From NCBI GenBank assembly GCA_046350795.1, contig JAXLZT010000002.1, forward strand, positions 24,293 to 88,292: a DNA stretch of 64,000 bases. Direction: 5' to 3'. The translations under genes and the position numbers were made by a program. The notes below the pieces were generated by a model that had not been told where the DNA came from, searched no databases, and saw only the letters and a program-made list of their open reading frames with translations. Shown in pieces: positions 3,442 through 62,577 of the stretch; the first letter of the stretch is position 1, and the number at the start of each line of letters is the position of its first letter. The DNA comes from Minisyncoccota bacterium. GTDB taxonomy: Bacteria; Patescibacteriota; Minisyncoccia; Phycocordibacterales; CALRHW01.

Positions 3442-3443
3442 TT

Positions 3444-10547: not shown

Positions 10548-10685
10548 CCCGATCGGGGAAGCAGGGTGTAATTCCCTCACAGTGCCGCTACGGTGAAAGT
10601 CCGAATGCCGATCAGGATATAATCCCGAGCAGGAAGACGCGCATATATGCGACGGCAATACTCCTCTCGGCAGAGGAGTATTTTT
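10548..10685 (+). promoter_or_regulatory. Probable cobalamin (B12) riboswitch with terminator-type expression platform
   Basis: GGGAAGCAGGGTGTAATTCCC...CACAGTGCCGCTACGGTGAAAG matches the cobalamin aptamer core consensus (GGGAAG..GGTG.AA.TCC...C.G.CCCGC.AC.GT.AA). The hairpin TACTCCTCTCGGCAGAGGAGTA plus TTTTT (10659-10685) abuts the ATG at 10686. Confidence 0.6.
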
Positions 10686-35849: not shown

Positions 35850-38450
35850 TTATATAACACTTCCGGAAGTGCCCCATTGTGAAAGAAGTATTGAGAAATC
35901 AACAGAGTTGACTGTGCTGTCTTGATTTATATCTACACATTCGTTTTGAAATGGCGCTATATTTTTCCAAAAAGCAAGCAAGATAGAGAAATCTACAGAG
36001 TTTACTATGTTGTCGGAGTTGAAATCTGCACCTTTACATGAGCCGGTATTACCTGATGATGAACTTCCGCCACCACTACTTCCGCCGCCACCACCGCCAC
36101 CGCCGGAGCTACCACCCCCACTGACTGTGAATGTTCTAGATGATCCTGAAGAATCTGTACCGAAGTACACTATGAGTTTGAAATAATAATCTCCTGCAGA
36201 ATCAACTGTCGCTGTAAGGTTTGTATTCCAATCTTCTCCTGGGTTTATAAATTTAGCACCTGTTGCGTGATATTCATCGTCTCCACCGCCACAAGAGTTT
36301 GATGCGCTAGATACAACGCACCATTCGTATTGGTATTCATATCCAGCTAGACCTTCGTTTGTAATTGTTACGTTTGCGCTGATATCAGAGACTGAGTTTG
36401 CTGTAACACTATTTATAATTACCTGAGCAGGGGAGCCAGCTACTAGCCAGTAATCGTTGTTTGTAAGTGTTTTACCACTTTCAACTTGTGTACTTATAAC
36501 ACTTTCCCATACGCCCTGAGTCGCACCAGAGGCTACAGAATATGTGTATTCATATATACCGGTTCCTACAGATGACATCGCAACATTTGATACTGTTACA
36601 TTTCTGAGAGGATCGTAAAGTGTGATTGTTGGTGTAGCAAATGGGGAAGTAGGAACACTGTTGTTATTTCTGATTTCAATTCTAGCTCTGTATGTTTCGC
36701 CAGCTTGAACTTCGTTGAAGTCTGACATTACTGTTGTCCAGCCAGAGCTTCCGCCGATTGCGCTTATCGCTGAAGCAAGAGATGTACTAGCAGTTAAAAC
36801 GCTACTATTTGTATTACTATTCACAGCACTTGTACCAGCTGTGATCGCTGAAGCCAAACTACTTGTCGCTGTCTGTACGTCAGACAATGTTGCGAGACTT
36901 CCGCTTGTGAGTGCTCCGCTTGTTAGAGTACGTACAGAGTTTGACCAGACATCAGACGCAAGTGTGCCGAAAGAGGTGAGTGTTCTACCACTATATGACC
37001 AAATCACTGCAGGAATTGTTGCAAACAAGCTTGATGAAGCTGTTGCGATCTCTGCGTCAGTGTTTGCGTTTACATCAGTCACTATATTCGCTGTCGCACT
37101 ATTGGTATTTGCGTTGATTACAGCAGCCAAACTAGATGTAGCTGTTGTCACCACTGAGCTTGTGTTGCTGTTTACAGCACTTGTACCAGCTGTGATCGCT
37201 GAAGCCAAACTACTTGTCGCTGTCTGTACGTCAGAAAGTGTTGCGAGAGAGCCAGATGTGAGCGCTCCACTTGTTAGAGTACGTACAGAATTTGACCAGA
37301 CACTAGATGTCACATCAGCTACGAGCGTACCAAAAGATGTAAGTGTTCTTCCGCTATATGACCAGATTGTTGCGGGAAGTGTAGCGAATAGAGATGATGA
37401 GGCCGTTGCAATCTCAGCATCAGTGTTTGCATTTACGTCAGTTACTATGTTTGCAGTAGCGCTGTTTGTGTTCGCATTAATAACCGCGGCTAGACTAGAT
37501 GAAGCTGTTGCAACCCTTGAGTCAGTGTTTGAGTTTACGACAGCAGCCAAACTACTTGTCGCTGTCTGTACGTCAGACAATGTTGCGAGACTTCCGCTTG
37601 TGAGTGCTCCGCTTGTTAGAGTACGTACAGAGTTTGACCAGACATCAGACGCAAGTGTGCCGAAAGAGGTGAGTGTTCTACCACTATATGACCAAATCAC
37701 TGCAGGAATTGTTGCAAACAAGCTTGATGAAGCTGTTGCGATCTCTGCGTCAGTGTTTGCGTTTACATCAGTCACCATATTCGCTGTCGCACTATTGGTA
37801 TTTGCGTTGATTACAGCAGCCAAACTAGATGTAGCTGTTGTCACCACTGAGCTTGTGTTGCTGTTTACAGCACTTGTACCAGCTGTGATCGCTGAAGCCA
37901 AACTACTTGTCGCTGTCTGTACGTCAGAAAGTGTTGCGAGAGAGCCAGATGTGAGCGCTCCACTTGTTAGAGTACGTACAGAATTTGACCAGACATCAGA
38001 AACTAAGCTACCAAAGGAGCTAAGTGTACGAGTAGTACTGTTCCAAACAGCATTCGCTATGGTACTTGTAGCAGCTATTGTCGCTCCGACTGTAAAGGTT
38101 TTATTTACTTTCACTAAATCACCGTTAGAAATGTTCCCACACGTCATATAAGTAGGCCAATTGCCCTCACTTTCTCCAGCACCAATAGAAAAATTGTAGT
38201 ATGTCCAACCATTTGCATTGGCTGTCATTGCACCAGCGTTTAATTTTACGCTTCCAGAAGGATCGTAGATAGTCAGAGTACAGCCAGCAGTAGTTGTTGC
38301 TACAAAATCATCATCATAAACAAACTCACCTATAGTAATAGTGTCACCAAGAGAAGCTCTTTGATAGTCCGCTTTTGCTGTATTTGAAAAAGACAAAAAC
38401 AACCCAAAAAATAAAATGCAAAATGCAAAAAAGGGTAGTGTTTTTTTCAT
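35850..38450 (-). CDS. Large secreted dockerin-containing repeat protein (start set at MKKTLPFFAF)
   Basis: Signal peptide. Four or more ~110-aa tandem repeats (WSNSVRTLTSGALTSGSLATLSDVQTATSSLA...NANTDAEIATASSSLFAT). A Gly/Ser linker. A C-terminal type-I dockerin pair (DFNSDNIVNSVDFSILLAFW, DINQDSTVNSVDFSILLSQW) with canonical Ca-loop positions 1,3,5,9,12. Confidence 0.7.
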   Translation of the reverse strand: MKKTLPFFAFCILFFGLFLSFSNTAKADYQRASLGDTITIGEFVYDDDFVATTTAGCTLTIYDPSGSVKLNAGAMTANANGWTYYNFSIGAGESEGNWPTYMTCGNISNGDLVKVNKTFTVGATIAATSTIANAVWNSTTRTLSSFGSLVSDVWSNSVRTLTSGALTSGSLATLSDVQTATSSLASAITAGTSAVNSNTSSVVTTATSSLAAVINANTNSATANMVTDVNANTDAEIATASSSLFATIPAVIWSYSGRTLTSFGTLASDVWSNSVRTLTSGALTSGSLATLSDVQTATSSLAAVVNSNTDSRVATASSSLAAVINANTNSATANIVTDVNANTDAEIATASSSLFATLPATIWSYSGRTLTSFGTLVADVTSSVWSNSVRTLTSGALTSGSLATLSDVQTATSSLASAITAGTSAVNSNTSSVVTTATSSLAAVINANTNSATANIVTDVNANTDAEIATASSSLFATIPAVIWSYSGRTLTSFGTLASDVWSNSVRTLTSGALTSGSLATLSDVQTATSSLASAITAGTSAVNSNTNSSVLTASTSLASAISAIGGSSGWTTVMSDFNEVQAGETYRARIEIRNNNSVPTSPFATPTITLYDPLRNVTVSNVAMSSVGTGIYEYTYSVASGATQGVWESVISTQVESGKTLTNNDYWLVAGSPAQVIINSVTANSVSDISANVTITNEGLAGYEYQYEWCVVSSASNSCGGGDDEYHATGAKFINPGEDWNTNLTATVDSAGDYYFKLIVYFGTDSSGSSRTFTVSGGGSSGGGGGGGGSSGGGSSSSGNTGSCKGADFNSDNIVNSVDFSILLAFWKNIAPFQNECVDINQDSTVNSVDFSILLSQWGTSGSVI
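36830..38000. repeat. Near-identical tandem DNA repeats (about 690 bp x2, each containing about 330-bp sub-repeats) inside the dockerin protein gene
   Basis: Blocks such as TCAGACAATGTTGCGAGACTTCCGCTTGTGAGTGCTCCGCTTGTTAGAGTACGTACAGAGTTTGACCAGACATCAGACGCAAGTGTGCC recur verbatim near 36880 and 37570. The shadow ORF 36715..38151 repeats identical peptide blocks. Confidence 0.7.
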
Positions 38451-38541
38451 GAGAATATTTGATTCAATAATATTTGATTCAAACTGATTAGTAAAGAAAT
38501 ATATCCACAGATTTTTCATTTATTTGTTCAAATAACATGTT

Positions 38542-39174: not shown

Positions 39175-41835
39175 ATGGCGAAAAGAGCGATAGAACATTT
39201 ATTTACCGGCACGACAACACCGTATTCCGTCTATGATTCTACAAAAACAGTTTTGGGTGACTTGATTCAGCAATACACAGGCGCGACTTCAACAGACAAA
39301 TTTGCCGGACCAACAAAAATCGGTGTCGCTAGACCCAACGAAACCGGTACAGCTATACCAGCTATTTATCCACACGTTATTTCTTGGGCTGATAAGAGAG
39401 GTTATTATAGCACTGGTACTGTATCTGCTTCAGGCACCTCTGTAACAGGTAGTGGTACATCATGGATTTCAAACGGTGTACCAATCGGTGCGCAAATTGG
39501 TTTTGGCAGTACAGATCCAGGGTCAATCACAACCTGGTATACCATAAGCACTGTTCCTTCAAATACTTCTATTACAATATCCTCTTCTGCTGGCACAATA
39601 GCTGGCGGAACATCTTACGTTATAAATAAAGAATTACAAAAAGATTGGGTATTTTTGGCTGACAACGCCACAGCGGCTGCCACTCGTCGTATTACTTGTT
39701 TTGAATACAATAGATCGACATCACTTTTTTCTTGGAGAGGTTTTATTACCATTACATATCCTTCTGGAGGAGGTAATCAAACCATCAGAGGTATGCGTGT
39801 GATATATGACACATACACCACAGGAACAGTCGGTGTTTCTGGTGCTACGGTGACAGGTAGCGGTACTACTTGGTCTGCTGATCGTATTGCCATTGGTTCA
39901 AGAATTGGTTTTGGTAGTACAGATCCCACTCAAATATCTACTTGGTATTATATAAATGCCGTCGGTGGCGATACTTCTATTACTATTCAAACAAACGTTA
40001 CTGCCAGTGGTACTGGAGGTACTGCTGCAAACATTTCCATAGCTTCAAGCACTGCTTATGTTATAGAAGATTTAAAGGTGCTGACAGCCACCACTGCTGT
40101 GGTGGTTGCTGCTGGAGGTTTGGCGGTGGTAAATGGTCTCTCTTATGATGATTTTGCTGTTGGAGGTACTACTATCGCTGCCGCGACTACAGTAGACAAA
40201 ACAAAAGCTGTATATTGTTTGGTTGATTTGGACTCTCTATATTCTACTGGTACCGTAACAGTGCCTTCTTCTACTACAGTTACAGGAAGCGGTACTTCTT
40301 GGGCAGCTGCAACACACTTGGGTTGTATGATTGGTTTTGGATCTACAAATCCAGCTTCTATTACTACTTGGTATACTATTACGGCGGTTGGTTCTACTAC
40401 ATCACTCACCATTTCTTCTGCAGCAACAGTTTCTGGAGGTACTGCGTATGTGATAGTGGGTGGAAACGGTATTTCTGGTGGTTTGGCTATTGATGATAGA
40501 GTGAGTTGGACTGAACAACATGCATATATTATTGAGGTCCAGGCTGGTACGACACCTCAGGTATATAAATACAATTTTCGTGCAAATTTAAACACATTAG
40601 GAAACGTGGCAGCAGGTAAGTCGGCTTGTGGCTGGATGCTTACTACTGGTACACAGACTGTTACAGGTACAGTTTCTCAGACAAACAACGGAAGAATAGG
40701 AACTTTGTCCCACGGTCCAGGATCTGGTGTTAAATGTTTATATTTTGCTGCCACAACTCGTATTCATAGGGCACCCCTTTCTGCTATTGTTCAGGGAAGC
40801 TCAACGTGGGTATCTGATTCTATGACCGAAATACCTACTGGAGGTACTGGTACATATACCGCTTCGAGTCTTATGACATCTGTAGAAATTGCTGATCAAA
40901 TAGACAGACTTATTATCACATCTACAGGTGCTGGAGGTACTACAGCTCACCATCGTGCTTATATTACAAAGTATGATTCTTCTGGTTCTTATGTTTTTGA
41001 TCACATATTTTTGACAGATAGTGCCCAGCAAGATCAATCTACAGCAGATTCTGATTCTACACCTCATCCAAATCCTCAGGGTGCTGCTTTGTCTGTATGG
41101 TCACAGGGAGGATTGGTATATATGGCACGTACTGGTACAGCTTCTACTACAAACATAATGTATTCAGTACCACTTGGTGCTGATTGGCAGTATGCTGACG
41201 GGACGGTAAAACAAAGACTTGTTACACCTGAGCTTTCTACCACAAACGCTACAAAACTTTCTCGTGTGTATATCAACGATGTCGGATATTTGGGATCAGG
41301 TGGTCTCACTATGCCTACAGAGCCGATTCGTATTTATTATAGAACTACTGGAATAGATGATGATTCTGGAACTTGGACACTAGTAGATCAGACGGGGGAT
41401 TTGGCAGAAGCAACACCAGCATCTACTGTACAATTTGCTATAGAGTTTAGATTAATTGGTGCCACATGTATACCAAATAGAGTTTTCAATTTGTGTTGTA
41501 CATACGAGGACAATACAACAGACAGTCATTATCAGCCGTCTGTTGCGCAATCTTCGATTACAAGCAAGCGTTTTGCATGGAGATTTTCAACAGCGTTTGG
41601 TGGTACTGTGCCGACTCTCAGAATACGACTATATAATGCAGAGACAGATGGTTTGATTTTGGATGATACAACCACAGCATCTGCTTCTGGAACATTTGAG
41701 AAGTCTACTGATGATGGTCAAAACTGGGGTTCATACAATACAACAGACAAGGGAAATGAAACTACTTACATTCGTTATACACCGACATCTTTGGCTGATG
41801 ATATAAAAGTAAGAGCCCTTTTAACTCAAAACTAA
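39175..41835 (+). CDS. 886-aa protein with three ~70-aa Trp-containing internal repeats; unknown function (surface/fibre-like)
   Basis: Repeats: GTSVTGSGTSWISNGVPIGAQIGFGSTDPGSITTWYTIS; GATVTGSGTTWSADRIAIGSRIGFGSTDPTQISTWYYIN; TTVTGSGTSWAAATHLGCMIGFGSTNPASITTWYTIT. Ser/Thr/Gly-rich with no recognisable catalytic motif. Confidence 0.45.
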   Translation: MAKRAIEHLFTGTTTPYSVYDSTKTVLGDLIQQYTGATSTDKFAGPTKIGVARPNETGTAIPAIYPHVISWADKRGYYSTGTVSASGTSVTGSGTSWISNGVPIGAQIGFGSTDPGSITTWYTISTVPSNTSITISSSAGTIAGGTSYVINKELQKDWVFLADNATAAATRRITCFEYNRSTSLFSWRGFITITYPSGGGNQTIRGMRVIYDTYTTGTVGVSGATVTGSGTTWSADRIAIGSRIGFGSTDPTQISTWYYINAVGGDTSITIQTNVTASGTGGTAANISIASSTAYVIEDLKVLTATTAVVVAAGGLAVVNGLSYDDFAVGGTTIAAATTVDKTKAVYCLVDLDSLYSTGTVTVPSSTTVTGSGTSWAAATHLGCMIGFGSTNPASITTWYTITAVGSTTSLTISSAATVSGGTAYVIVGGNGISGGLAIDDRVSWTEQHAYIIEVQAGTTPQVYKYNFRANLNTLGNVAAGKSACGWMLTTGTQTVTGTVSQTNNGRIGTLSHGPGSGVKCLYFAATTRIHRAPLSAIVQGSSTWVSDSMTEIPTGGTGTYTASSLMTSVEIADQIDRLIITSTGAGGTTAHHRAYITKYDSSGSYVFDHIFLTDSAQQDQSTADSDSTPHPNPQGAALSVWSQGGLVYMARTGTASTTNIMYSVPLGADWQYADGTVKQRLVTPELSTTNATKLSRVYINDVGYLGSGGLTMPTEPIRIYYRTTGIDDDSGTWTLVDQTGDLAEATPASTVQFAIEFRLIGATCIPNRVFNLCCTYEDNTTDSHYQPSVAQSSITSKRFAWRFSTAFGGTVPTLRIRLYNAETDGLILDDTTTASASGTFEKSTDDGQNWGSYNTTDKGNETTYIRYTPTSLADDIKVRALLTQN

Positions 41836-48822: not shown

Positions 48823-49515
48823 TTATGCTAAGATTTTGTATCCTCTTCCAGGTACACTAACTATTAGATTTTTATTCATATCACGTATCTTTTTTCTAAT
48901 GTTCATTATGTGTGTTTCAATGGTATTTGAAAAAGGATTTATCTCTAGATTCCAGACGTGTTCCAATATCATTCCACGAGAAAGAACGTGCCCCTTATTT
49001 CGCATCAAGTATTCCAAAAGCGCAAACTCTTTTTTTGTAAGATAAATTTCCTTATCTTTGTAAGTTACTACTTGTTTTGTTGTCTCTAATTTTATGTTTT
49101 CTACTTGCAAAACATGACCATGTATATGTCGCGCTCTTTTCATAATGACTCTTATGCGTGCCAGTAGCTCATCAAAGGAAAATGGTTTAAGTATATAGTC
49201 ATCGGCTCCGGCATTAAAACAATCTATTTTGTCATCAAGCTCTCTGCTTTCTGAAAGAACAATGATTGGTGTATTTCTACCTATGGCTCTGATTTCTTTA
49301 CATATTTCTATTGCGTTTTTTTCTGGAAGGAAAAATTCGGATATGATCAAATCATAGTCATTGGTGCGAGCAATAAATGAAGCGTTTTTGCCATCTTCAG
49401 AGGTGTCGACAGCAAAGCAGGTGGAAAGTAAACTTATTTCCAAAAATTCTCTCATTCTTTTATCATCTTCTATTATCAATACTCTCATATAGGCCTTGTA
49501 CCAAAAATTGGCCAA
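48823..49515 (-). CDS. OmpR-family response regulator (REC + winged-helix); likely start MRVLIIEDD at 49488
   Basis: REC-domain Asp pocket (LIISEF...), K-box, and a C-terminal winged-helix (GHVLSRGMILEHVWN). Confidence 0.8.
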   Translation of the reverse strand: MANFWYKAYMRVLIIEDDKRMREFLEISLLSTCFAVDTSEDGKNASFIARTNDYDLIISEFFLPEKNAIEICKEIRAIGRNTPIIVLSESRELDDKIDCFNAGADDYILKPFSFDELLARIRVIMKRARHIHGHVLQVENIKLETTKQVVTYKDKEIYLTKKEFALLEYLMRNKGHVLSRGMILEHVWNLEINPFSNTIETHIMNIRKKIRDMNKNLIVSVPGRGYKILA

Positions 49516-49617: not shown

Positions 49618-52600
49618 GTGGTATTAATAATTTATGAAAAAACCACAAATTTTATGAAAAATCTCTTATTTATTGGGGCAAGAGGGCAAAAACACAGTCT
49701 TTTATCAAGGTTTTTTATTAAATCGACAGCAGGGCTGTTGATTTTTTTATTTGCTTTTCCGGTGGGGGTAGTTTGGGGAGAAGATCACAGTATCGATAAA
49801 AACCACAACAGATCAGCTGAAAAAACAGATACAATAAAACCATCAGACCCAGAAAAACACGATGTTGGTGTTGTACCAACTATATCTGAAGTAGCTCCAT
49901 CTCATAGATCAAAAAAGGATTCTAGAGATGAATCTGATAAGGAGGTGGTTCCACAGTTATTGCTTGATGAAGATGCAAATAATATAGTAGAAAATCCTAG
50001 TTCAATAAAAAGTTTATTGCCTGACGTTGATACTTTTTCTGGATCTCTTGTTTATAAATATCCAATAGTTTTGCCAGCTGGTCGCAACGGTCTTACCCCA
50101 AGTCTTGATCTTACATACAATAGTGGTTTGTCATTAAATAATAGTATTTCTGGATACAACTGGTCTCTTTCTATTCCTTTTATAGAACGTATAAACAGAA
50201 AAGGTGCTGACAAGCTTTACTCAAGGAATGATTTTGTATCGTCTCTTTCAGGTGAGCTTGTAGCAGAAAATGGTACCACTAAATATACAGCAAAAGTTGA
50301 TGAAGGTTCTTTTCTAGATTATACATTCACAAATGATACTTGGACTGCTGTAGATAAACAGGGAACAAAATATACTTTCGGCTCTACTACTCAGTCACGT
50401 TTAAACAATGCTTCTAACGCATCAGAAACTTATCGTTGGATGGTGGAAGAGATTCGTGATAAAAATGACAATTTCATTAGATTTGAGTATGAAAAAGACA
50501 GTAATCAAATCTATCCTTCAAATATTTTTTATACAGGATATGGAAGTACGGACGGTATTTTTGAAGTAAATTTTAATTATGAAAATAGAGAAGATGAAAC
50601 CAATAGTTTTGCATCAAGATTTGAGATGGTTACTTCAAGGCGTCTTGAGAACATAGAAATAAATATAAACGGTGTTTTATCAAAGAAATATTCTTTAGCA
50701 TACATCGCTGGTCACAACACCGTCAGATCTTTATTAAAATCAATCACTGTGTCGGCTGGAACCACCACATTGCCTGCAACGGAATTTGAATATCAGACTA
50801 TACCAAAAAAATTAGAATTTAAACCTGATGTTTTTCAGTCACCATCATTTTACAGGCCATCTACATCAGATTATGCTTTTATTGAATTAAAAGAGAGTCC
50901 TGAATCTACAAATAGACTTGTTGATGTCAACGGCGATGGTCTTTTGGATTTTATACGTACTTCTAATAGCGAAAACAGTGATGGTATTGTTCATGACATA
51001 AATAATGATTTGCCTCGCGTTTTCCTAAACACAGGTCATAGTTGGGAATTTAATCCAGATAAATACCAGTTACCTTCTTATTACCGACCTAGTACAAATG
51101 ATTATAAGTATATGGTTCTAAATGATGTCAATAAACTCATTGATGTTAACGGGGACAATTTACCAGATTTTATTCATACTTCAGATGTAGCTGATGCTGA
51201 TGGTGTGATCACTAACAACAATGATGGTTTCCCGAGAGTCTATTTAAATACTGGTAATGGTTGGGAATTTAATCCAGATAAATATCAATTACCTTCTTAT
51301 TACCGACCTAGTACAAATGATTATTTTTTCTTTCAGACAAAAGAAGAGGAGCACGATGTTACGCAGATAATAGATGTCAACGGTGATGGGCTACCAGATT
51401 TTGTGCGTACATCCGACGATGAGGATGCTGATGGTGTTGTTCTTAACAATAACAACTCTGCTCCTCGTGTATATCTAAATACTGGTAACGGTTGGGAATT
51501 TAATCCAAATAAATATCAACTTCCTGTTTATTACAGACCTAGTACAAATGATTATTATTTTATGGCACTTAAATCTGTCCCAGGATCTACAAACAGACTT
51601 ATTGATGTCAATGGTGATGGGTTAGTAGATTTTTTGAGAACAAATGACACTGAGGATGCTGATGGAGTTGTTTTAAATAACAACGGTGATGCACCACGTG
51701 TTTATCTAAATACTGGCAACGGCTGGGAATTTAATCCAGATCACTATCAGCTTCCTGTGTATTACAGACCGCCTACAAATGATTATCATTTTATGGCACT
51801 TAAGGAGTTTACACAGCTTGCTGATGTAAATGGCGACGGTTTGCCAGATTTTGTCCGTACAGACGATGGTGAGCATGCGACGGGTGTTATAACAAATCTA
51901 AATGGTGATGGTCCACGTGTTTATCTAAACACAGGAAATGGTTGGAAGTTTGATCCCGATTTGTATCAGTGGCCGGCATTTTACAAGCCAGCTACAAACA
52001 ATTATGAGTGGAGAGCTTTGAAGACTAGTAATCAGCTCATAGATATAAACGGTGATAATCTATTGGATTTTGTGCGCACATCTGCTGGTGAGGATGCTGA
52101 TGGACTAATACTTAATAATAATGGTGATGGATCTCGTGTATATATAAATACAGGAAAAGGTTGGGAATTTAACCCTGATTTATATCAATTACCTTCGTAT
52201 TATAGACCGTCTACATCAGACTATTATTTTATGCAACTTTCATATTACTCTAAATTTGCTGATATAAACAACGATGGATTGCAAGATTTTATTAAGACTA
52301 CAAGCGAATTTGATTCTGATGGTCTTATTCTGAATAATCTAAACGATGGTGCAAGAGTATACCAGAATGTTGGGGAAACCGCTGATTATTTAGCAGCTGT
52401 TATTTTTCCAGAGGGTGGAGAGGCACATTTCGATTATCAACTTGAAATAATAAACGGCAGAAATCCAAGTAGTCCATATTATTCTCAAAATGTTTCTGTG
52501 CTTAAAGATATTGTCATAGATGATGGTCTGGGGAATCTAGCAACAAGTACATATAAGTACAAAGATGGAGAGTATTTTTATCATAACGATCCATTTAAAC

Positions 52601-55600
52601 AATTTACAGGATTCAGTAAGGTAGAAAAAACAGACGCTCTAGGGAATTTAACAAAATCATATTTCCATCAAGGTAACGCTTCAGCTACAAGTACCGGTGA
52701 ATACGATGATCACATTTCAAAAATGGGAAAGATGTATCGCACAGAGCAGTACGATGCAAACGGCAATCTTTTTTCAAAGACCATAAATAAGTGGGATCAC
52801 TTTGATACTTTGACTGCTGCGGGTGCGACTTCTACTTTTGTAAAACTCGTAGATACTGTGGAGTTTGCATATGACGGAGATTCTGATCATAGAGAGAAAG
52901 CAGAAAGTTATGCGTATGATAATACCAATGGTAATTTGTCACAAAAAATATCTTGGGGTGAGGTAAATGGTAATAATGATGGCACTTTTTCAGATACTGG
53001 AAGCGACAAAACTACGACTAGTATGACATATGCCACAAGCTCAACTACCAGTGTTTTACCATCAAGCTTCTTACCGTCTCGTGAACTCGTTGTCGATCAA
53101 TATGGCGCTGTAGTACGTGATACAAAATCATATTATGACAATCTCTCTTTTGGATTAATAGATAAAGGTAATCTAACAAAGCAGGAAATGCTAAAAAGTG
53201 GTTCGTCATATATCGATGTAGAAAAGATCTACAATAGCTACGGTCTTGTGACACAGGAAAAAGATCCACGCGATAAAGCAACGAGTTACTCATACGATCC
53301 TTTCAACTTATATCCAGCAACTACTACAAATCCTATAGGACAAACGACGAATGCTTTGTATGATTATTCGTCAGGCAAGCCAAAGCAGATTACAGATGCA
53401 AATGGGTGGGTGTTTCAGATAATATACGACGGTCTAGGAAGAATAATAGAAGAAAAACAGCCAGATACAGTATCGCCCGCAACTCTTGTTACAAAATCCT
53501 CCTATGTTTATGAGGACGACACTTTCCCTACGAGTGTAATGAAAACGGATTATTTAAATGGCCTATCTACTTCTTCGTCTACCGTTGATTCGTATAAATA
53601 TTTTGATGGTTTGGGTCGCGTAATACAAGAGCGCCGACGTGCAGAAGATAGTAATACATATAGTGTAAAAGACACACAGTATGGTCTGACAGGACAAAAA
53701 TCTCGTGAGTCACTGCCATACTTTAGCACCGGATCTGCACGTACTAGTGCGACTGGTACAAATTCACTTTGGAACAATTTCACTTACGATGCACTTGGAA
53801 GGATAAAGACTATTGCAAACTCGGTTGGTACAATAACAAATACGTATGATGATTGGAAACTCACTGTTACCGACGCAAATGGTAAATCAAAAGATTTATA
53901 CAAAGACGCGCGGGGTAATCTGGTGCAAGTAGACGAACACAATTCTGGTGATACATATAGTACATACTATGAATGGAATCCACTTGGTAACCTGACAAAA
54001 ATAACAGATGCACTCGGTAATATTCGCAACTTCACATATGACAAATTGGGTCGTCGTTTGACAGCAGAAGATTTACACTATTCTGGCGATGGTAATTTTT
54101 CTACTTGGACCTATACATATGATGATGCTGGTAACACAACTTCTGTAGTTGATGGAAAAGGGCAAACCGTAAACCATACATATGATGATATCAACCGCGC
54201 ACTTACAGAAGACTTTACTGGTGAAAAGGGAACAGAGATTACATATGGATACGATATTTGTAGCAACGGAAAGGGAAAAATTTGTTTTGCTACTAGTACT
54301 GATGCTCTGGCTGGTAGGACGGTAGTATCATATACATATGACGCACTCGGTCGCACATCTAGTGAGGCAAAAAATATTGCTGGTACAACATACCAGACAA
54401 ATAATGAATATGATCGCTTGGGCAACCAGACACTTGTTACTACCCCAGACGGAGCGCAAATAAAATACGAATACAACTCTGGTGGAATGGTAGAAAAAAT
54501 AGCTCGTAAGGGAGCGGGAGCGGGTTCATTTGTAAATGTGGTTGAGGATTTTGACTACTCTCCAGAAGGAAAAATAGTATATCAAAACAATCACAATGAA
54601 ACTGCGACAACAAATACATATGATGCTAGTCACCTGTATCGTCTAACTGATAAATTTACCGATGGACCAGCATGGGGCATCACAAATGTCCTTCAGGATT
54701 TGCACTATACATATGACAATGTAGGCAATATCACACAGTTGTCTGATACTTCAGAAACAAACAACAGTAAAACTATAGTTTACACTTATGACGATCTTTC
54801 ACGGCTCACTATGGCTTCTAGTACTGCTGTGGGTGACGGTCCAGCATACAAAGAGACTTACACATATAACGCCATCGGCAACATTCTTACAAAAAGTGAC
54901 TTAGGTACATATCTATATTCCGGTGCCACATCTACTACTCTCTTTACCAATCCTCACGCTGTCACGTCTGTAAACGGTACAGCGTACACCTACGACCGCA
55001 ATGGCAATACCACACAGGCAGGTACGGCCACAAGTAGCTGGAACTATAGAAACCAAATGATAAGTATGAAAGTGGGAGCGACTACCACCACCTACGTCTA
55101 CGACCATACGGGTGATCGTGTAAAATACACTAACAAACTTTCTACTATCGTATATCCCAACAAGCTATACAACATAGAGATACCAGTTGGTACTTCTACT
55201 ATGGCTACTACCACCGCAAGTCATATTTTCCTAGGTGACACCATGATAGCTACAGTAGAAAAGGTGGGTACTACCACAGAAGCTATACACTACATACACA
55301 CAGATCATCTCTCGGGTGCCAACATATCTACAGACAAAGACGGCCTTGTCACTGAAATCACCGATTTCTACCCATATGGAGACCAGAGACTAAACAAGAG
55401 CTACAATGGTAACTTTAAAGAACAAAGGAAGTTTACAGGGCACGAGTATGATGAGGATACGGGGTTGAATTATATGGGGGCGAGGTATCAGAATGGGAAT
55501 ATCGGGAGGTTTATGAGTGAGGATCCGGCCTTTCTCAAATTTGACCCAAATACTTCAGAAGGAAAGATGATGTTAATGGATCCACAACATCAAAACTCCT

Positions 55601-56316
55601 ACTCGTACGCTAGAAACAATCCGCTTGTATACACAGATCCAGATGGAGAGTTTGCACAGATTATCGCGGGTGTAGCAATTGGTGCCGCAGTGGGAGGTGT
55701 TATTGGAGGAACTGTATCAGCAATATCAGGAAATAGTTTCTGGTCGGGTGCAAAGTATGGAGCTATATCTGGAGCTACCGCAGGTCTCGTTATCTCTACT
55801 GCTGGTATGGGAGCGGCCGCTCTAGGTCTTACTTCATCAGAGGCCATAATCGGAGGATCTGCCGTTGGAAATGCATTAGGAAACGTGGCTGCTCGTGCCG
55901 CTGATGGACAATCTACTACTCCTGGCGATGTGGGAATGGATCTTGTAACTGGTGGAGCGGCTGGCATATTGAATGTGGGATATCTTAAAACACAAGGAGT
56001 TATTGGTAAAAATGGAAATTATATACCGACCATGTCAGCAAAAGATCTGCCGGCAGAGGCAAAAGCATTACTGGGTGAATACAACTCAAATGGTTGGTCT
56101 AAGGCACAAAGTGGACCAACTGGTGATCCACACACCTGGCAAAATCACGCTGGCGAACTTCCTTCTAGGGCAACAATATTTGACGCACAGTACAGTACGG
56201 GGCGGAGTCGAGGTTTAGAAAGGTTTGCGAATACTGGAAATAATGTTTATTATTCAAATACGCATTATGGTCAAGTCCCTAGAGGATCAAATCCATTCTT
56301 TAAATTAAAAAAATAG
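49618..56316 (+). CDS. Giant TcB/TcC-like polymorphic toxin: SpvB-like N-domain, 8x FG-GAP-like propeller repeats, RHS/YD-repeat shell with RHS core, variable C-terminal toxin domain
   Basis: SpvB-like region PDVDTFSGSLVYKYPIVLPAGRNGLTPSLDLTYNSGLSLNNSISGYNWSLSIPFIERINRKG. Repeats DVNGDGLPDF...PRVYLNTGNGWEF occur 8 times. Many YD motifs (YTYDALGR, YDKLGRR). RHS core end GHEYDEDTGLNYMGARYQNGNIGRFMSEDP, followed by a Gly-zipper and a unique 200-aa tail. Confidence 0.8.
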   Translation: MVLIIYEKTTNFMKNLLFIGARGQKHSLLSRFFIKSTAGLLIFLFAFPVGVVWGEDHSIDKNHNRSAEKTDTIKPSDPEKHDVGVVPTISEVAPSHRSKKDSRDESDKEVVPQLLLDEDANNIVENPSSIKSLLPDVDTFSGSLVYKYPIVLPAGRNGLTPSLDLTYNSGLSLNNSISGYNWSLSIPFIERINRKGADKLYSRNDFVSSLSGELVAENGTTKYTAKVDEGSFLDYTFTNDTWTAVDKQGTKYTFGSTTQSRLNNASNASETYRWMVEEIRDKNDNFIRFEYEKDSNQIYPSNIFYTGYGSTDGIFEVNFNYENREDETNSFASRFEMVTSRRLENIEININGVLSKKYSLAYIAGHNTVRSLLKSITVSAGTTTLPATEFEYQTIPKKLEFKPDVFQSPSFYRPSTSDYAFIELKESPESTNRLVDVNGDGLLDFIRTSNSENSDGIVHDINNDLPRVFLNTGHSWEFNPDKYQLPSYYRPSTNDYKYMVLNDVNKLIDVNGDNLPDFIHTSDVADADGVITNNNDGFPRVYLNTGNGWEFNPDKYQLPSYYRPSTNDYFFFQTKEEEHDVTQIIDVNGDGLPDFVRTSDDEDADGVVLNNNNSAPRVYLNTGNGWEFNPNKYQLPVYYRPSTNDYYFMALKSVPGSTNRLIDVNGDGLVDFLRTNDTEDADGVVLNNNGDAPRVYLNTGNGWEFNPDHYQLPVYYRPPTNDYHFMALKEFTQLADVNGDGLPDFVRTDDGEHATGVITNLNGDGPRVYLNTGNGWKFDPDLYQWPAFYKPATNNYEWRALKTSNQLIDINGDNLLDFVRTSAGEDADGLILNNNGDGSRVYINTGKGWEFNPDLYQLPSYYRPSTSDYYFMQLSYYSKFADINNDGLQDFIKTTSEFDSDGLILNNLNDGARVYQNVGETADYLAAVIFPEGGEAHFDYQLEIINGRNPSSPYYSQNVSVLKDIVIDDGLGNLATSTYKYKDGEYFYHNDPFKQFTGFSKVEKTDALGNLTKSYFHQGNASATSTGEYDDHISKMGKMYRTEQYDANGNLFSKTINKWDHFDTLTAAGATSTFVKLVDTVEFAYDGDSDHREKAESYAYDNTNGNLSQKISWGEVNGNNDGTFSDTGSDKTTTSMTYATSSTTSVLPSSFLPSRELVVDQYGAVVRDTKSYYDNLSFGLIDKGNLTKQEMLKSGSSYIDVEKIYNSYGLVTQEKDPRDKATSYSYDPFNLYPATTTNPIGQTTNALYDYSSGKPKQITDANGWVFQIIYDGLGRIIEEKQPDTVSPATLVTKSSYVYEDDTFPTSVMKTDYLNGLSTSSSTVDSYKYFDGLGRVIQERRRAEDSNTYSVKDTQYGLTGQKSRESLPYFSTGSARTSATGTNSLWNNFTYDALGRIKTIANSVGTITNTYDDWKLTVTDANGKSKDLYKDARGNLVQVDEHNSGDTYSTYYEWNPLGNLTKITDALGNIRNFTYDKLGRRLTAEDLHYSGDGNFSTWTYTYDDAGNTTSVVDGKGQTVNHTYDDINRALTEDFTGEKGTEITYGYDICSNGKGKICFATSTDALAGRTVVSYTYDALGRTSSEAKNIAGTTYQTNNEYDRLGNQTLVTTPDGAQIKYEYNSGGMVEKIARKGAGAGSFVNVVEDFDYSPEGKIVYQNNHNETATTNTYDASHLYRLTDKFTDGPAWGITNVLQDLHYTYDNVGNITQLSDTSETNNSKTIVYTYDDLSRLTMASSTAVGDGPAYKETYTYNAIGNILTKSDLGTYLYSGATSTTLFTNPHAVTSVNGTAYTYDRNGNTTQAGTATSSWNYRNQMISMKVGATTTTYVYDHTGDRVKYTNKLSTIVYPNKLYNIEIPVGTSTMATTTASHIFLGDTMIATVEKVGTTTEAIHYIHTDHLSGANISTDKDGLVTEITDFYPYGDQRLNKSYNGNFKEQRKFTGHEYDEDTGLNYMGARYQNGNIGRFMSEDPAFLKFDPNTSEGKMMLMDPQHQNSYSYARNNPLVYTDPDGEFAQIIAGVAIGAAVGGVIGGTVSAISGNSFWSGAKYGAISGATAGLVISTAGMGAAALGLTSSEAIIGGSAVGNALGNVAARAADGQSTTPGDVGMDLVTGGAAGILNVGYLKTQGVIGKNGNYIPTMSAKDLPAEAKALLGEYNSNGWSKAQSGPTGDPHTWQNHAGELPSRATIFDAQYSTGRSRGLERFANTGNNVYYSNTHYGQVPRGSNPFFKLKK

Positions 56317-56334
56317 TCAGGTAATATAAAAAAT

Positions 56335-56691
56335 ATGAAAGAATTCAAATTTGATTTCGTCGGTAAAAAAACAGAAAATGATTTTGCTGAACATTTCTAT
56401 AGATCTTTGAACGAATTAACAGGTCTGCCTCTTCTTGTTTTGCCCAGCATTCATCCCGATGGTCTATATGACGATTTGTTCGGATTTCTATCCAGTAAAG
56501 AATTTATAGGTAAGTTTGGAAAAGATATTTACTTTGTTCTTCAAAATACAAATGAGCTAAAACAAGAAGAACCAAAAGTATTAGAAAATACACTGTTGGC
56601 TCTTGAGGAAACAAAAAAAGAATTGAAAGAAAACCAATATCTAAAAAAAGATGAGAAAACTATAAATTTCAACTATTCTATAGAGAACTAA
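56335..56691 (+). CDS. Candidate cognate immunity protein for the RHS C-terminal toxin
   Basis: 118 aa, cytoplasmic and acidic, starting 19 nt after the toxin stop. This is the position typical of RHS/CDI immunity genes. No recognised domain. Confidence 0.4.
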   Translation: MKEFKFDFVGKKTENDFAEHFYRSLNELTGLPLLVLPSIHPDGLYDDLFGFLSSKEFIGKFGKDIYFVLQNTNELKQEEPKVLENTLLALEETKKELKENQYLKKDEKTINFNYSIEN

Positions 56692-56835: not shown

Positions 56836-57048
56836 ATGAAAAAACTTCCCTTAGCATTGATTCCATTTGCATTGATTGTGATAGTAATGCTTGTGTTTGC
56901 ACTAATTATTCCTCAAGGAGGGGATCTAATTTCTGCTTCCGGAGACGGTGTGCTTGGTGGTATCTTGAGTATGGCATTTATCGCTTGTGCAGTTATCGAT
57001 ATTAAAAGATATAGAGAAAGAAAAAGGAACTCAATCAGTAACAGCTAA
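56836..57048 (+). CDS. Small hydrophobic protein (70 aa, 2 TM)
   Basis: MKKLPLALIPFALIVIVMLVFALII...LGGILSMAFIACAVI. Flanked by near-identical terminator hairpins. Confidence 0.4.
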   Translation: MKKLPLALIPFALIVIVMLVFALIIPQGGDLISASGDGVLGGILSMAFIACAVIDIKRYRERKRNSISNS

Positions 57049-57162: not shown

Positions 57163-57636
57163 ATGTATAATGTCAAACAAGTTATTGTTTTAATCATAAA
57201 AATGACCAACCACACACAACAATCAAACATAAATACTATTTTAGAAATTCTCAAAAATGAGATTGAGGGGGACGTGAATGCTGCGCTTGAAAAAATGACC
57301 GATGATTACTCGATGACGTGGGTATACAAACGGCGTGATGGTGTATTGTTCCCATCTGTTTTGGCACAGGATGTGCGCGCCGCTATGAAGGATGTGTATG
57401 TGATAAAAGGTCGTCAATACGATATCAAGCACATTGTCTCCGGCGGAGATGTGGTCATGGCGGAACTTGTTGAAAGTTATCCCGATGAGAAAGATGCTTC
57501 TGTTGTGTATCGAACCCCAATGGTTATTGTGTGGGAATTTAAGGATCAGAAAATCCGTGCTGGACGTCACTATTGTGATCCACAGCTTTCTTATGAAAAC
57601 CTGACAGAGGAGCAGGTGAGGGGGTTGTTTAAGTAG
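57163..57636 (+). CDS. NTF2-like/SnoaL-like fold protein (unknown function)
   Basis: About 145-157 aa. The alpha+beta cone pattern (hydrophobic core with conserved Asp/His) is weak, and the assignment rests on size and composition only. Confidence 0.3.
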   Translation: MYNVKQVIVLIIKMTNHTQQSNINTILEILKNEIEGDVNAALEKMTDDYSMTWVYKRRDGVLFPSVLAQDVRAAMKDVYVIKGRQYDIKHIVSGGDVVMAELVESYPDEKDASVVYRTPMVIVWEFKDQKIRAGRHYCDPQLSYENLTEEQVRGLFK

Positions 57637-57777: not shown

Positions 57778-58170
57778 ATGTCAAATCATTTCGGTGAACA
57801 CCTCACTTTAGATGGATATGGTGGCGAAGAAAGACTCTTGGACAGTCAAGAAACAGTTTTACGTGCTCTAAACGAACTTGTTGATCTTTTGGGTATGAAG
57901 ATACTTGCTGAGCCACAGGTTTATTTTGCCGAATCAAATGAAATAAAAGACCCTGGAGGATGGACTGGAGTCGTGGTGATTATGGAAAGTCACATTAGTA
58001 TACACACCTTTCCAAAGAGAGGATTTGTAAGTGCTGACGTTTATACTTGTCAAAATGGTTTAAACACGGATTTGATAATTTCCTATTTTAAAAAAGCTTT
58101 CAATCTGAAAGATGTCGAAACGAATTTTATAAAAAGAGGGATAAAGTATCCAGGTCAGAACATTTACTGA
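57778..58170 (+). CDS. speH: S-adenosylmethionine decarboxylase proenzyme (SpeH, class 1b)
   Basis: Self-processing site motif VVIMESHISIHTFPKRGFVSADVYTC (ES cleavage, Ser to pyruvoyl). 130 aa. Confidence 0.8.
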   Translation: MSNHFGEHLTLDGYGGEERLLDSQETVLRALNELVDLLGMKILAEPQVYFAESNEIKDPGGWTGVVVIMESHISIHTFPKRGFVSADVYTCQNGLNTDLIISYFKKAFNLKDVETNFIKRGIKYPGQNIY

Positions 58171-58184
58171 TATAATTTATAAGT

Positions 58185-58406
58185 ATGATAAACACAGAAA
58201 ATAAATCTATTATTTTAAATTGGGTCGTCATCTTGATTGTATTGTTGAGTCTTATCTTTACTTACTATCGTAGTTTTATATCGAAAGACTATGAAATTAT
58301 ACCAATTGAAGATAATGAAGATTCTGTTTTAGAAGAGGGAGTGCAGACAGGAGATGTAGAAGAAACTGTTGGAGATGATTTAAGCGTTGACCAAGTCTTT
58401 GAGTAA
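58185..58406 (+). CDS. Small membrane-anchored acidic protein (73 aa)
   Basis: One TM helix followed by an Asp/Glu-rich tail. Overlaps the 3' end of the convergent DHS-like gene. Confidence 0.3.
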   Translation: MINTENKSIILNWVVILIVLLSLIFTYYRSFISKDYEIIPIEDNEDSVLEEGVQTGDVEETVGDDLSVDQVFE

Positions 58407-59510
58407 GTACCCTTTCTTTTTTGTAAAAATTTTACTCCAGCCCCAACTCTTTCTCTTTTTCCAGTTTTTATTGTGATAAAGATAACTTGCCATAAGCGGA
58501 AGGGCAGCAGTAGCTTCGGCAAAAACCATTTGTTCGTATTCATGGTGTACCTTACCCCATGAACCAGCTTCTTTCAGTGTTGAGCTAGAGCAAGCCCCAT
58601 CTCGCACATCGGCTACGCTTATTTGAATAGCGTACTTATGCATTGGGACATCATGTCCCAGTATTTCTGCACACACCACCGTATCTTGTGCGAAATTTTT
58701 TGGAGTGCCTCCTCCGATAATGACAACACCACTAGTTTTTGCTTCTATTTTGATTTGTGTTAGTTCATGGAAATCTTTTACAGAATCTATTGAAAGGTGT
58801 TTTTCTGGATTCTTTACTTGATGTAGTACGAGACCAAATCCAGCACTACTGTCAGAAAAGGCTGGGCAGAATATTGGAACATTGTGTTCGTATGCTGCTT
58901 GAACAAGAGAATTTTTCTTTACAGATTTTTTTGATAGATATTTTCCCATTTCCCATATGAACTCTCTTGATGAGTATGGTCGTCTTTCTAGAGAGTCAGC
59001 AATTTCAGCTATGGCAGCGTCACATTTTTGTAGATCGTCTTCGTCTATGTATGTATCATAGATACGATCTATATAATGACCTCGTAGAAGTCGGTCATCG
59101 ATATGAGGAGTACCTTGGTAGTGTTTAAAACCAAGTGCTTCGAAAAAATCCATATCGACAATGCTTGCGCCAGTGGCAACTATCACATCAACCATGTTAT
59201 TTTTTACTAAATCAGTATATATATCCATGCAACCACCAGCACTTGTACTTCCAGCCAAGGTTAGAATAATAGTACAATCCTTATCTTTCAGCATGTTGTC
59301 ATAGATTTTTGTTGCATTTGCTAGATCTCGAGAGGTGAAAGACATTTTTGACATGGCTTCTATTAGATCTCGAGTATCAATCTTTTTAATATCTATATGT
59401 TCAACAGTCTTGGAAAGCAGCTGTTTTTTTGTTGGTTTTTGTGGCATAGTTATATTTGTAGGTATTAAATTGGTCTTTTTGATAATACCACTTAAGTTTG
59501 TTTTTAGCAA
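58380..59510 (-). CDS. Deoxyhypusine synthase-like (DHS/homospermidine synthase family) NAD-dependent aminobutyl transferase
   Basis: DHS-family patterns: TLAGSTSAGGCMD, VDVIVATGASIVDMDFFEALG, VIIGGGTPKNFAQ. About 355-376 aa. Confidence 0.6.
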   Translation of the reverse strand: MLKTNLSGIIKKTNLIPTNITMPQKPTKKQLLSKTVEHIDIKKIDTRDLIEAMSKMSFTSRDLANATKIYDNMLKDKDCTIILTLAGSTSAGGCMDIYTDLVKNNMVDVIVATGASIVDMDFFEALGFKHYQGTPHIDDRLLRGHYIDRIYDTYIDEDDLQKCDAAIAEIADSLERRPYSSREFIWEMGKYLSKKSVKKNSLVQAAYEHNVPIFCPAFSDSSAGFGLVLHQVKNPEKHLSIDSVKDFHELTQIKIEAKTSGVVIIGGGTPKNFAQDTVVCAEILGHDVPMHKYAIQISVADVRDGACSSSTLKEAGSWGKVHHEYEQMVFAEATAALPLMASYLYHNKNWKKRKSWGWSKIFTKKKGYLLKDLVNA

Positions 59511-60897: not shown

Positions 60898-62577
60898 ATG
60901 TCAGAGTTTTTATGCCCATGGGAGGCAGCCCAATATTTTATATATTCAAGTAATGTACCTACACTTTTGTATTATTCTCACATTCCGTCGATAATTGCTG
61001 CACTCGCTATTGTTCTTCTTGTACTTCCCAAAACAAAAAGAACACTTGTAACCAAGTTGTTATCTATAATGTTTTTTGTGTTTATCGCTTGGTCTATAAG
61101 TGATTTAATTTTGTGGGCAACGAATCGTGCTGATGTTACCGTGTTCTTTTGGTCGACTCAGATATTGTTGGAGGTTTTGGTATATGCACTGGCATTTTAT
61201 GTTAGCTACGTGTTTATTTTTAATGAGGACCTGAGTTTCCGTAATAAATTTTTGTTAACCATGCCTATCGCAGTGTTTTCATTATTAATTCCAACAAATT
61301 TTACCATTACGGGCGTTGAGCTTGGAACATGTTATGCAATTGAAAATCCAGTAATAATTTTTTTGAGTTATATTTTTGAGGCTTTTTTCATTATAGCAAT
61401 TGCTATAATGTCCCTAAGAGGTTATCGCACGGTTGCTCAGAATAAGAAGAAACAGATAATCGGTTATTCTTTGGGAATAATAGTTTTTCTTCTGGCACTA
61501 ACCTACGGTAATATGATCGGTAGTTTTTCAGATGATTGGGTTGTAGCACAGTATGGTTTGTTCGGTATGCCTGTATTCATTGCTTTTCTTACTTACACAA
61601 TTGTCAAATTTAGACTTTTTGCTGTAAAGCTTCTTGGAGCACAGGCATTAGTCGTTACTCTTTGGGTTCTGATTGGATCCATGTTGTTGGTTGTCCAGAG
61701 TACTGCTTCTAGATCCATTGTTGTTTTTACTCTCGTTCTGTCTTTTATGTTTGGTATCTTTTTAATCCGCAGTGTCAAAAAAGAAGTCACACAACGCGAA
61801 CAAATCGAAAAACTAGCCGTAGATCTGCGACACACCAATAGCAACCTCGAGCACGCCAACGATCGGCTAAAAGAACTCGATAAACAAAAAACAGAATTCG
61901 TGTCTTTTGCTACGCATCAGCTACGCAGTCCTCTCACCGCAATGAAGGGTTATTCTTCGCTAATTTTGGAGGGTGACTACGGTGAAATAAGTCCAGACCT
62001 GCGTGACGCTGTGCAAAAAATTCATGAGTCTACCAACACACTTACAAACGTTGTTAATGACTACCTAAACATTTCTCGCATAGAGCTTGGTACAATGAAA
62101 TATGATTTTAAGTCACTTGATCTAAAAGATGTTGTGAGAGAGGTGGTGGGTGAGTTACAGCCAAATATGGACAAAGCGGGAATAAAGTTTTCATTTGAAG
62201 TGGATGCGCGTGCAAAATATCTAGTAAAAATTGATATTGATAAGTTCAAGCAGGTCCTTGCAAATATTATAGACAACTCTATAAAGTACACACCATCTGG
62301 ATCTATTGTTGTTTCTGTAAAAAAAGATACATCAAAAAATACCATTACTTTTGCAGTAAAAGATACTGGTATCGGTATGGCAGAAGGTGTGATACCAAAA
62401 CTTTTTGCAAAGTTTAGCCGAGCTGAGAATGCAAACAAAGTAAATATCCGTGGCACAGGACTCGGTCTCTTTGTTGCAAAGGAAATAGTAAAAGCTCACG
62501 GCGGAAAAGTCTGGGCGGAGTCAGAAGGCGAGGGTAAAGGCTCACAGTTTTACGTAGAGTTGCCAGCAGAGAAGTAG
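60898..62577 (+). CDS. Sensor histidine kinase with N-terminal 7TM (HisKA_7TM-type) sensor, HisKA and HATPase_c
   Basis: Seven hydrophobic helices, a coiled-coil, H-box FATHQLRSPLTAM, N-box NIIDNSIKYT and G-box GTGLGLFVAKEIV. Confidence 0.8.
   Translation: MSEFLCPWEAAQYFIYSSNVPTLLYYSHIPSIIAALAIVLLVLPKTKRTLVTKLLSIMFFVFIAWSISDLILWATNRADVTVFFWSTQILLEVLVYALAFYVSYVFIFNEDLSFRNKFLLTMPIAVFSLLIPTNFTITGVELGTCYAIENPVIIFLSYIFEAFFIIAIAIMSLRGYRTVAQNKKKQIIGYSLGIIVFLLALTYGNMIGSFSDDWVVAQYGLFGMPVFIAFLTYTIVKFRLFAVKLLGAQALVVTLWVLIGSMLLVVQSTASRSIVVFTLVLSFMFGIFLIRSVKKEVTQREQIEKLAVDLRHTNSNLEHANDRLKELDKQKTEFVSFATHQLRSPLTAMKGYSSLILEGDYGEISPDLRDAVQKIHESTNTLTNVVNDYLNISRIELGTMKYDFKSLDLKDVVREVVGELQPNMDKAGIKFSFEVDARAKYLVKIDIDKFKQVLANIIDNSIKYTPSGSIVVSVKKDTSKNTITFAVKDTGIGMAEGVIPKLFAKFSRAENANKVNIRGTGLGLFVAKEIVKAHGGKVWAESEGEGKGSQFYVELPAEK

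Follow-up and report, generated by a model that had tools for sequence, protein, structure and literature searches.

We describe a toxin locus in a 64,000-nucleotide (nt) stretch of contig JAXLZT010000002.1 (the window). The genome belongs to Candidatus Paceibacterota within the Patescibacteria, or Candidate Phyla Radiation (CPR). The central open reading frame (ORF) comprises 2232 codons (49618..56316, plus strand), encodes a protein of 2232 amino acids (aa) and is followed after an 18-nt spacer by a 118-aa ORF, whose product is also on record at NCBI, with no difference in sequence, for a metagenome-assembled genome (MAG) of such a bacterium. In our judgement, the two are likely to form a polymorphic toxin/immunity pair of the Rhs class, whose toxin has a TcB-like front end and a self-contained mechanism of the kind proposed below. 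An initial annotation of this DNA had described both ORFs, which are indeed present, although it gave the spacer as 19 nt, and it had read them as a fused TcB/TcC-type RHS toxin with a candidate immunity gene. The polymorphic pair holds up. What had been left unnamed are the apparent type of toxin, a barnase/RNase Sa-like tip behind a glycine-zipper module, and the apparent type of immunity protein, a barstar fold.

Domain architecture of the toxin

The complete set of Pfam and NCBIfam matches on the toxin consists of SpvB, FG-GAP_3, RHS_repeat, DUF6443, Rhs_assc_core and YD_repeat_2x. The SpvB-like N-terminus of the initial annotation is borne out by a match to PF03534 (E 3.4e-16) and by a phmmer search of PDB sequences, in which it matched the N-termini of YenB (4igl) and TcdB1 (6l7i; E 8e-5 to 5e-4). 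Near its start the protein has a strongly hydrophobic stretch (AGLLIFLFAFPVGVVWG), with a hydrophobic 15-mer (Kyte–Doolittle hydropathy 2.54) behind a basic n-region. An equivalent hydrophobic segment is present in 97 of the 120 homologues, and we infer that it represents a Sec-type signal peptide. Since this signal-peptide-like segment directly follows the first in-frame ATG (49654, codon 13), that ATG is the likely translation start. The GTG at 49618 is only the mechanical start of the ORF, from which all residue numbers given here are counted.

The next region is an array of FG-GAP-like repeats, in which three motifs (YYRPST-like, D(V/I)NGDxLxDF and RVYLNTG-like) recur at a spacing of 73–77 aa. 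As each of them occurs exactly seven times, the array comprises seven blades and not the eight repeats counted earlier, and it presumably folds into a seven-bladed β-propeller. The match to FG-GAP_3 (E 8.5e-5) is below the Pfam cut-off. Tandem Repeats Finder (TRF) assigns the array a period of 231 nt. The TcdB mid-domains PF12256 and PF12255 (TcdB_toxin_midN and midC) had no Pfam match on the toxin at E ≤ 0.01; PF12256 appears in the precomputed Pfam lists of some homologues only.

The YD/RHS repeat region, also recognized correctly from the outset, matches RHS_repeat (PF05593) in five stretches (E 1.1e-29) and YD_repeat_2x (TIGR01643, E 1.7e-14), and contains 22 YD dipeptides. Among PDB sequences, this shell matches the cocoons of type VI secretion system (T6SS) Rhs effectors, namely RhsA (7q97, E 1.3e-17) and Tse5 (8cp6, E 2.6e-10), which are the best sequence matches for both shell and core.

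The Rhs-associated core (TIGR03696, E 2.6e-15, model positions 1–75 of 76) is present as annotated, but its end lies 40 aa past GRFMSEDP (aa 1970). The aspartyl protease motif that had been suggested as a check is there: both conserved core Asp residues are found, D1969 in GRFMSEDP and D2007 in NNPLVYTDPDG (aa 2000–2010, ending with G2010), 38 aa apart. A loose version of the core-end motif, N-N-P-x(3-6)-D-P-x-G, occurs in 100 of the 120 homologues. TccC3 has a PxxxxDxxG cleavage motif and two catalytic Asp residues (PMC7861908), which have their counterparts in the NNPLVYTDPDG motif and in D1969 and D2007 of our toxin. The core is thus a predicted aspartyl autoprotease together with its cleavage site. 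Because it ends at NNPLVYTDPDG, the tip is 222 aa long, within the range of 201–400 aa reported for the hypervariable region (HVR) of Tc toxins (PMC7861908).

The tip: a glycine-zipper module and a putative divergent ribonuclease

The tip opens with a Gly/Ala-rich module. Within the 124-aa stretch that precedes the RNase domain there are ten GxxxG motifs, two transmembrane-like stretches and nine charged residues, and glycine-zipper Pfam families match the module weakly (E 0.01–0.04). PDB matches of the module to herpesvirus gB were dismissed as meaningless, being matches of transmembrane composition. The module recurs in the tips of two further loci (L012 and L013). In homologue P0033 it is followed by a different terminal domain, and at locus L014 the same RNase domain stands behind another linker. 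Since P0033 and L014 combine each of the two with other parts, the glycine-zipper module is separable from the enzyme domain.

The terminal domain matches the PF00545-annotated tip of homologue P0011 (phmmer, E 5e-10). With a profile of three tips (A1), E-values were 1e-13 to 1e-11 for RNases Sa2, Sa3 and Sa and ~1e-3 for barnase. A second profile (A6) was made from the window's own subfamily only, that is, from five tips that are 43–64% identical, and was searched against the whole PDB. All of its 13 matches were RNase Sa-family chains aligned over nearly their full length, each of them individually weak (E 0.07–0.7). Residues R2198, R2202 and H2216 correspond to R65, R69 and H85 of RNase Sa. 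R2202 and H2216 are invariant in the subfamily and R2198 is kept in four of the five tips. In place of the canonical Y-x-E-Y the subfamily has an invariant D2189-A-Q2191-Y, and HMMER aligns Q2191 with E54 of RNase Sa. D2189 may serve as the general base, because its position two residues before the Gln would put it on the same strand face. It is at this general base that the enzymatic assignment is weakest.

The downstream gene: a barstar-like immunity candidate

The 118-aa protein is acidic, as first noted (isoelectric point (pI) 5.0). When 1.84 billion representative proteins were searched exhaustively with HMMER, only four relatives came up, one of which matches Pfam Barstar at E 0.13. D42, D46 and D47 are invariant across the ORF and these relatives. 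From the single sequence, AlphaFold2 gave an unusable model (pLDDT 45), which was remedied by a five-sequence alignment (pLDDT 90.3, pTM 0.85). In a Foldseek search with the latter model, the nine best matches were all barstar chains. When aligned by hhalign with a small barstar alignment, the family gave a P-value of 3e-5, and D42 and D46 were paired with both Asp residues of the barnase-binding helix of barstar-family sequences, which we take to be D35 and D39. Taken together, the model and the alignment suggest a barstar-fold immunity protein that is detectable by profile–profile and fold comparison only.

Simpler searches were uninformative. For both the tip and the 118-aa ORF, single-sequence searches of PDB sequences returned only noise, and word-indexed homologue searches found no matches for the tip and nothing except itself for the ORF. 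Profile A5, run against metagenome contigs and genome contigs, detected no related loci, and a degenerate DNA pattern for IHPDGLYDDLFG was absent from the metagenome and genome contig collections.

One of the relatives (P0124, at L014 676-1227) is 183 aa long and ends in a hydrophobic extension (...IPMTIIPLIVIIIASIIFYFL...), pointing to a membrane-anchored form of the immunity protein.

Tip and immunity gene are exchanged together

The initial annotation had made its immunity claim depend on conservation of the downstream ORF with the C-terminal domain, and the ORF does co-vary with the tip. All four relatives of the 118-aa ORF sit a few nt 3′ of a gene whose product carries a C-terminal tip of the same RNase subfamily, so that tip subfamily and ORF family are paired at all five loci, the window included; at L014 the preceding RHS core end is visible as well. 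Behind each of the two other RNase-tipped members of the toxin family (P0011 and P0068) there is likewise a Pfam Barstar gene. Together with the barstar-fold model and the exchange at a syntenic locus described next, this coupling upholds the assignment of the downstream ORF as the immunity gene.

Locus L016 is syntenic with the window, with a DEAD-box helicase, a divergent response regulator and a toxin gene in common. The shell of its toxin (P0001) is 60–78% identical to ours, but at the core end (aa ~2010) identity declines from 66% to just 23%. The ORF downstream of it encodes a Cys-rich protein of 116 aa that is unrelated to the 118-aa ORF. Since both the tip and the downstream ORF have been replaced behind a conserved shell, the locus shows the cassette behavior of polymorphic toxins. 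Variability of the C-terminus, claimed in the initial annotation, is also evident family-wide: tips are diverse across 101 proteins (100 homologues and the window toxin), and, according to precomputed Pfam lists, sister tips include HNH and restriction-fold nucleases, Ntox44, CHAP and M15 peptidases.

A full-length search found at least 336 database relatives of the toxin. Among those with a named source, the commonest lineage is Patescibacteria (Paceibacterota, Falkowbacteria, Vogelbacteria and Parcubacteria). This abundance tempers the earlier remark that such a system would be notable in a small-genome organism. Two relatives with the full architecture, P0006 and P0119, are attributed to the archaeon Candidatus Methanoperedens nitratireducens and to Vicinamibacterales; the Methanoperedens relative has 44% identity across half of the query. 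Such attributions may reflect spread across domains or phyla, or contamination during binning. At another locus (L001), a toxin-barstar pair is followed by a 514-aa fragment of an RHS/YD shell (7671-9215), possibly an orphan shell-tip module. DUF7674 genes lie 3′ of RHS loci in L001 (9560-10120) and L015 (1043-1402) and may represent another immunity or accessory family.

Proposed mechanism

One of the closest known systems is Bacillus subtilis WapA, an Rhs/YD toxin of a monoderm that uses the general secretory pathway. WapA-type toxins and the window toxin have in common a signal peptide (putative here), a YD/RHS shell, a DPxG core, a variable tip of RNase type and an adjacent downstream immunity gene, with tip and immunity exchanged as a cassette. 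WapA is not known to have the TcB/SpvB-like domain and the array of seven FG-GAP-like blades of the window toxin; the glycine-zipper pre-toxin module and the patescibacterial host also set it apart.

We propose that the toxin is probably Sec-exported and independent of TcA. In favor of this, no TcA, T6SS or type VII secretion system (T7SS) families were found on window ORFs of at least 400 aa, the rest of the genome not having been searched. After export by Sec, there would be no outer membrane to cross. The YD shell would fold around the tip and be closed by the TcB-like N-terminal region and the propeller. The aspartyl protease of the core would then cut after DPDG, leaving the tip free within the cocoon. 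Once the toxin meets a target cell (a bacterial host or a competing epibiont), the propeller might bind or act as a gate, and the tip would be released. The glycine-zipper module could insert into the target membrane and aid the passage of the RNase, which would degrade cellular RNA. In the cytoplasm of the producer and of immune kin, the barstar-like protein would block the RNase active site.

A number of observations weigh against this reading. The tip by itself matches PF00545 at E 0.006 and 17.5 bits, short of the gathering cut-off of 24. The canonical Glu (E54 in RNase Sa, E73 in barnase) is not conserved, and the guanine-binding N-R-E is N-H-A. The divergent barnase/RNase Sa-type ribonuclease is therefore putative in both activity and specificity. 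The 118-aa ORF has no Pfam match, Barstar (PF01337) included, a hidden Markov model (HMM) profile of its family found no barstar among PDB sequences, and the hhalign probability of its match to barstar is just 73%. Finally, we infer autoproteolysis, encapsulation, the export route, the target and the translocation role of the glycine-zipper module.

Alternative explanations

The protein might instead be a secreted or surface-anchored scavenging RNase, or an adhesin with a dead tip, in which case there would be no delivery and the small ORF would merely guard the producer before export. We consider this improbable. Its appeal lies in the absence of the canonical catalytic Glu, in the lack of a visible delivery apparatus in the window, and in the possible gain of Patescibacteria from extracellular RNA breakdown; to our knowledge, these bacteria lack nucleotide biosynthesis. 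Classical barnase, moreover, is simply secreted, with barstar as the intracellular guard. The pair shares with barnase–barstar and RNase Sa–barstar (1brs and 1ay7) a nearly full-length alignment with RNase Sa, the equivalents of R65, R69 and H85, an apparent barstar fold with its DxxxD acidic motif, and an adjoining inhibitor gene. It differs from them in that both partners fall below Pfam thresholds, that Glu has given way to DAQY and NRE to NHA, and that the inhibitor exceeds barstar in length by ~30 aa. Here, too, the RNase is the cargo of a 2000-aa carrier and not a free secreted enzyme. Against the scavenging or adhesin reading, a cocoon of ~2000 aa with an autoprotease core would be costly for a nutritional enzyme. 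The RNase is also preceded by a putatively membrane-active glycine-zipper module. Since sister tips differ, and tip and immunity gene are swapped together, the family points to antagonism and diversifying selection. Likewise, the invariance of DAQY, R and H in tips that are only 43–64% identical argues for a constrained active site, contrary to a dead tip.

Less credible still is the idea that the protein is the BC component (a TcB–TcC fusion) of a true Tc (ABC) complex, which would dock onto a TcA encoded elsewhere and inject eukaryotic cells. The resemblance to Tc cocoons (YenB/YenC2, 4igl, and TcdB2-TccC3) is real: the SpvB/TcB-like N-terminus that matches YenB and TcdB1, a propeller located, as in TcB, between this domain and the YD shell, and a core with two Asp residues and the PxxxxDxxG motif. 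Single-polypeptide B–C fusions exist naturally (PMC7861908), and TcdB_toxin_midN is annotated on some homologues. However, the surveyed Tc loci are devoid of immunity genes and 96% proteobacterial (PMC7861908), whereas here a cognate barstar-like gene follows. The toxin has a signal-peptide-like N-terminus, and its FG-GAP-like propeller has no match to the TcdB mid-domain families. Its cargo resembles an RNase of bacterial conflict rather than a eukaryote-directed enzyme, and the usual settings of barnase/barstar pairs are conflict between bacteria or self-protection. The only window ORFs above 1000 aa are the toxin and a Big_7/PG_binding protein, with no TcA Pfam families. In agreement with the initial annotation, which saw no TcA-like translocator nearby, no TcA partner gene was found in the 64-kb window or in the additional flank of locus L003. 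Since it lacks the TcA-binding mid-domains, has no TcA partner in the DNA searched and comes with an immunity gene, the protein does not qualify as a true Tc (ABC) toxin, and the earlier label of a Tc-toxin BC cocoon was overstated.

The T6SS Rhs effectors RhsA of P. protegens and Tse5 of P. aeruginosa share with the window toxin an autoproteolytic core and an encapsulated tip (both predicted here) and an immunity gene. The tip of Tse5 is a glycine-zipper membrane-inserting toxin and resembles the first half of our tip, in which the zipper is followed by an enzyme domain. In place of a PAAR/prePAAR or VgrG-interacting N-terminus, the window toxin has a TcB-like plug. That the toxin is an effector of a T6SS, a T7SS or a type IV pilus or type IV secretion system (T4SS)-like system, and not Sec-exported, is the least probable of all: many Rhs toxins are T6SS cargo and the shell matches RhsA and Tse5, and L003 has a pilin-like N_methyl gene ~9 kb downstream, but the toxin has no PAAR, VgrG-binding, LXG or WXG family in Pfam or NCBIfam, it has a signal-peptide-like N-terminus as most homologues do, there are no T6SS or T7SS genes among the window ORFs of at least 400 aa, and Patescibacteria are not known to have an outer membrane or a T6SS.

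Locus organization and assembly

The features of the locus are listed in Table 1. The divergent response regulator reported in the initial annotation is real and of OmpR type. In L016, its counterpart (2375-3133, minus strand) is 68% identical. That response regulator and DEAD-box helicase are conserved beside the toxin gene in L016 may reflect synteny alone or a link in regulation. The histidine kinase genes nearest to the response regulator (60898-62577 and 26431-27777) are not adjacent to it. A promoter scan gave 26 sites against 29.5 expected from shuffled sequence, i.e. no excess. The immunity gene is followed by ORFs of 70 aa (56836-57048, plus strand; no matches) and 157 aa (57163-57636, plus strand; weakly SnoaL-like), which are kept in all same-species contigs and have no link to the toxin system.

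Table 1. Features of the toxin locus in window coordinates, with residue numbers counted from GTG 49618
Feature	Coordinates	Strand	Details
OmpR-type response regulator, divergent from the toxin	48823..49515	-	L016 counterpart 68% identical
Toxin gene	49654..56316	+	Probable start ATG 49654 = aa 13
Signal-peptide-like N-terminus	49654..49779	+	MKNLLFIGARGQKHSLLSRFFIKSTAGLLIFLFAFPVGVVWG, then EDHS; basic n-region, hydrophobic 15-mer
TcB/SpvB-like N-terminal domain	50035..50295	+	Best stretch aa 140-226; Pfam SpvB
Seven tandem FG-GAP-like repeats	50818..52380	+	aa 401-921, 73-77 aa each
YD/RHS-repeat shell	52381..55365	+	aa ~922-1916, ~1000 aa
Rhs-associated core	55366..55647	+	aa 1917-2010, TIGR03696; GRFMSEDP and NNPLVYTDPDG
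Gly/Ala-rich glycine-zipper pre-toxin module	55648..56001	+	aa 2011-2128; 43% Gly+Ala
Putative barnase/RNase Sa-family tip	56020..56313	+	aa 2135-2232, ~98 aa
Candidate cognate immunity gene, divergent barstar-like fold	56335..56691	+	118 aa, pI 5.0, invariant D42/D46/D47

The toxin region is 100% identical to two Logan contigs and 99.5–99.7% identical to contig CAYQIZ010000001.1 (GCA_964417815.1). Sequencing samples SRR14271366 and SRR26348419 to SRR26348423 contain the strain. In the latter assembly, the toxin gene is split into two ORFs (594 and 1584 aa), and its annotation lists a truncated 1584-aa protein as a result. We considered whether the toxin might be a pseudogene and rejected this: the alignment shows a scaffold gap of 100 N within the propeller repeat array (L003 5031-5141, corresponding to window ~51300-51475), so the split is an assembly artefact. 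Several Logan contigs likewise stop at this array. The tandem 231-nt repeats thus disrupt short-read assemblies of this toxin gene family.

Other features of the window

Elsewhere in the window, an AdoCbl-II riboswitch (Rfam RF01689; 10541-10618, plus strand; 57 bits, E 2e-11) is located directly after a gene for B12-dependent ribonucleotide reductase (7734-10010). It is followed by ORFs 10647-11159 and 11162-13117, the second of which has weak prenyltransferase/TED-like and cobalamin-binding-protein matches. An AdoMet decarboxylase gene (57778-58170, plus strand) adjoins a deoxyhypusine-synthase-family gene (58380-59510, minus strand; E 1e-97), and together they resemble a module for polyamines (homospermidine-type), here within a reduced genome. 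Three large proteins are probably surface-exposed: one of 1408 aa with Big_7 and PG_binding_1 (18227-22453, plus strand), one of 889 aa with alpha-2-macroglobulin MG2 and dockerin domains (35850-38519, minus strand), and one of 886 aa that has no Pfam match (39175-41835, plus strand). At 1705-5747 (plus strand), a gene for a DNA methylase (N6_N4_Mtase) and, after it, one for a ResIII/helicase protein resemble a type III restriction-modification pair.

Implications

The modules of this toxin and its overall logic are already known, so that it is an expected combination rather than a new principle. What is new is the dissected example from Paceibacterota, the DAQY tip subfamily and a family of putative barstar-fold immunity proteins that is invisible to sequence models. 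In the searchable literature, we found no paper describing an SpvB + FG-GAP + RHS toxin family in Patescibacteria; an RHS toxin of one Saccharibacterium is mentioned in passing (PMC6031116).

Patescibacteria/CPR are abundant and mostly uncultured epibionts, whose interactions with hosts and rivals are largely obscure. Here, one locus of a toxin family that is apparently common in these bacteria, and most members of which are generically annotated, has been parsed in full. Its cleavage site, its variant barnase-type active site, the candidate module for membrane translocation and the divergent barstar are all open to testing. A more speculative view, to which we give only limited credence, is that Patescibacteria have made the TcB-TcC cocoon into a Sec-exported single-polypeptide device that needs no TcA, T6SS or T7SS, with targeting by the propeller, membrane passage by the glycine zipper and an Asp-shifted general base. 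If this is true, these epibionts would have in such a device one of their main weapons or means of exploiting a host.

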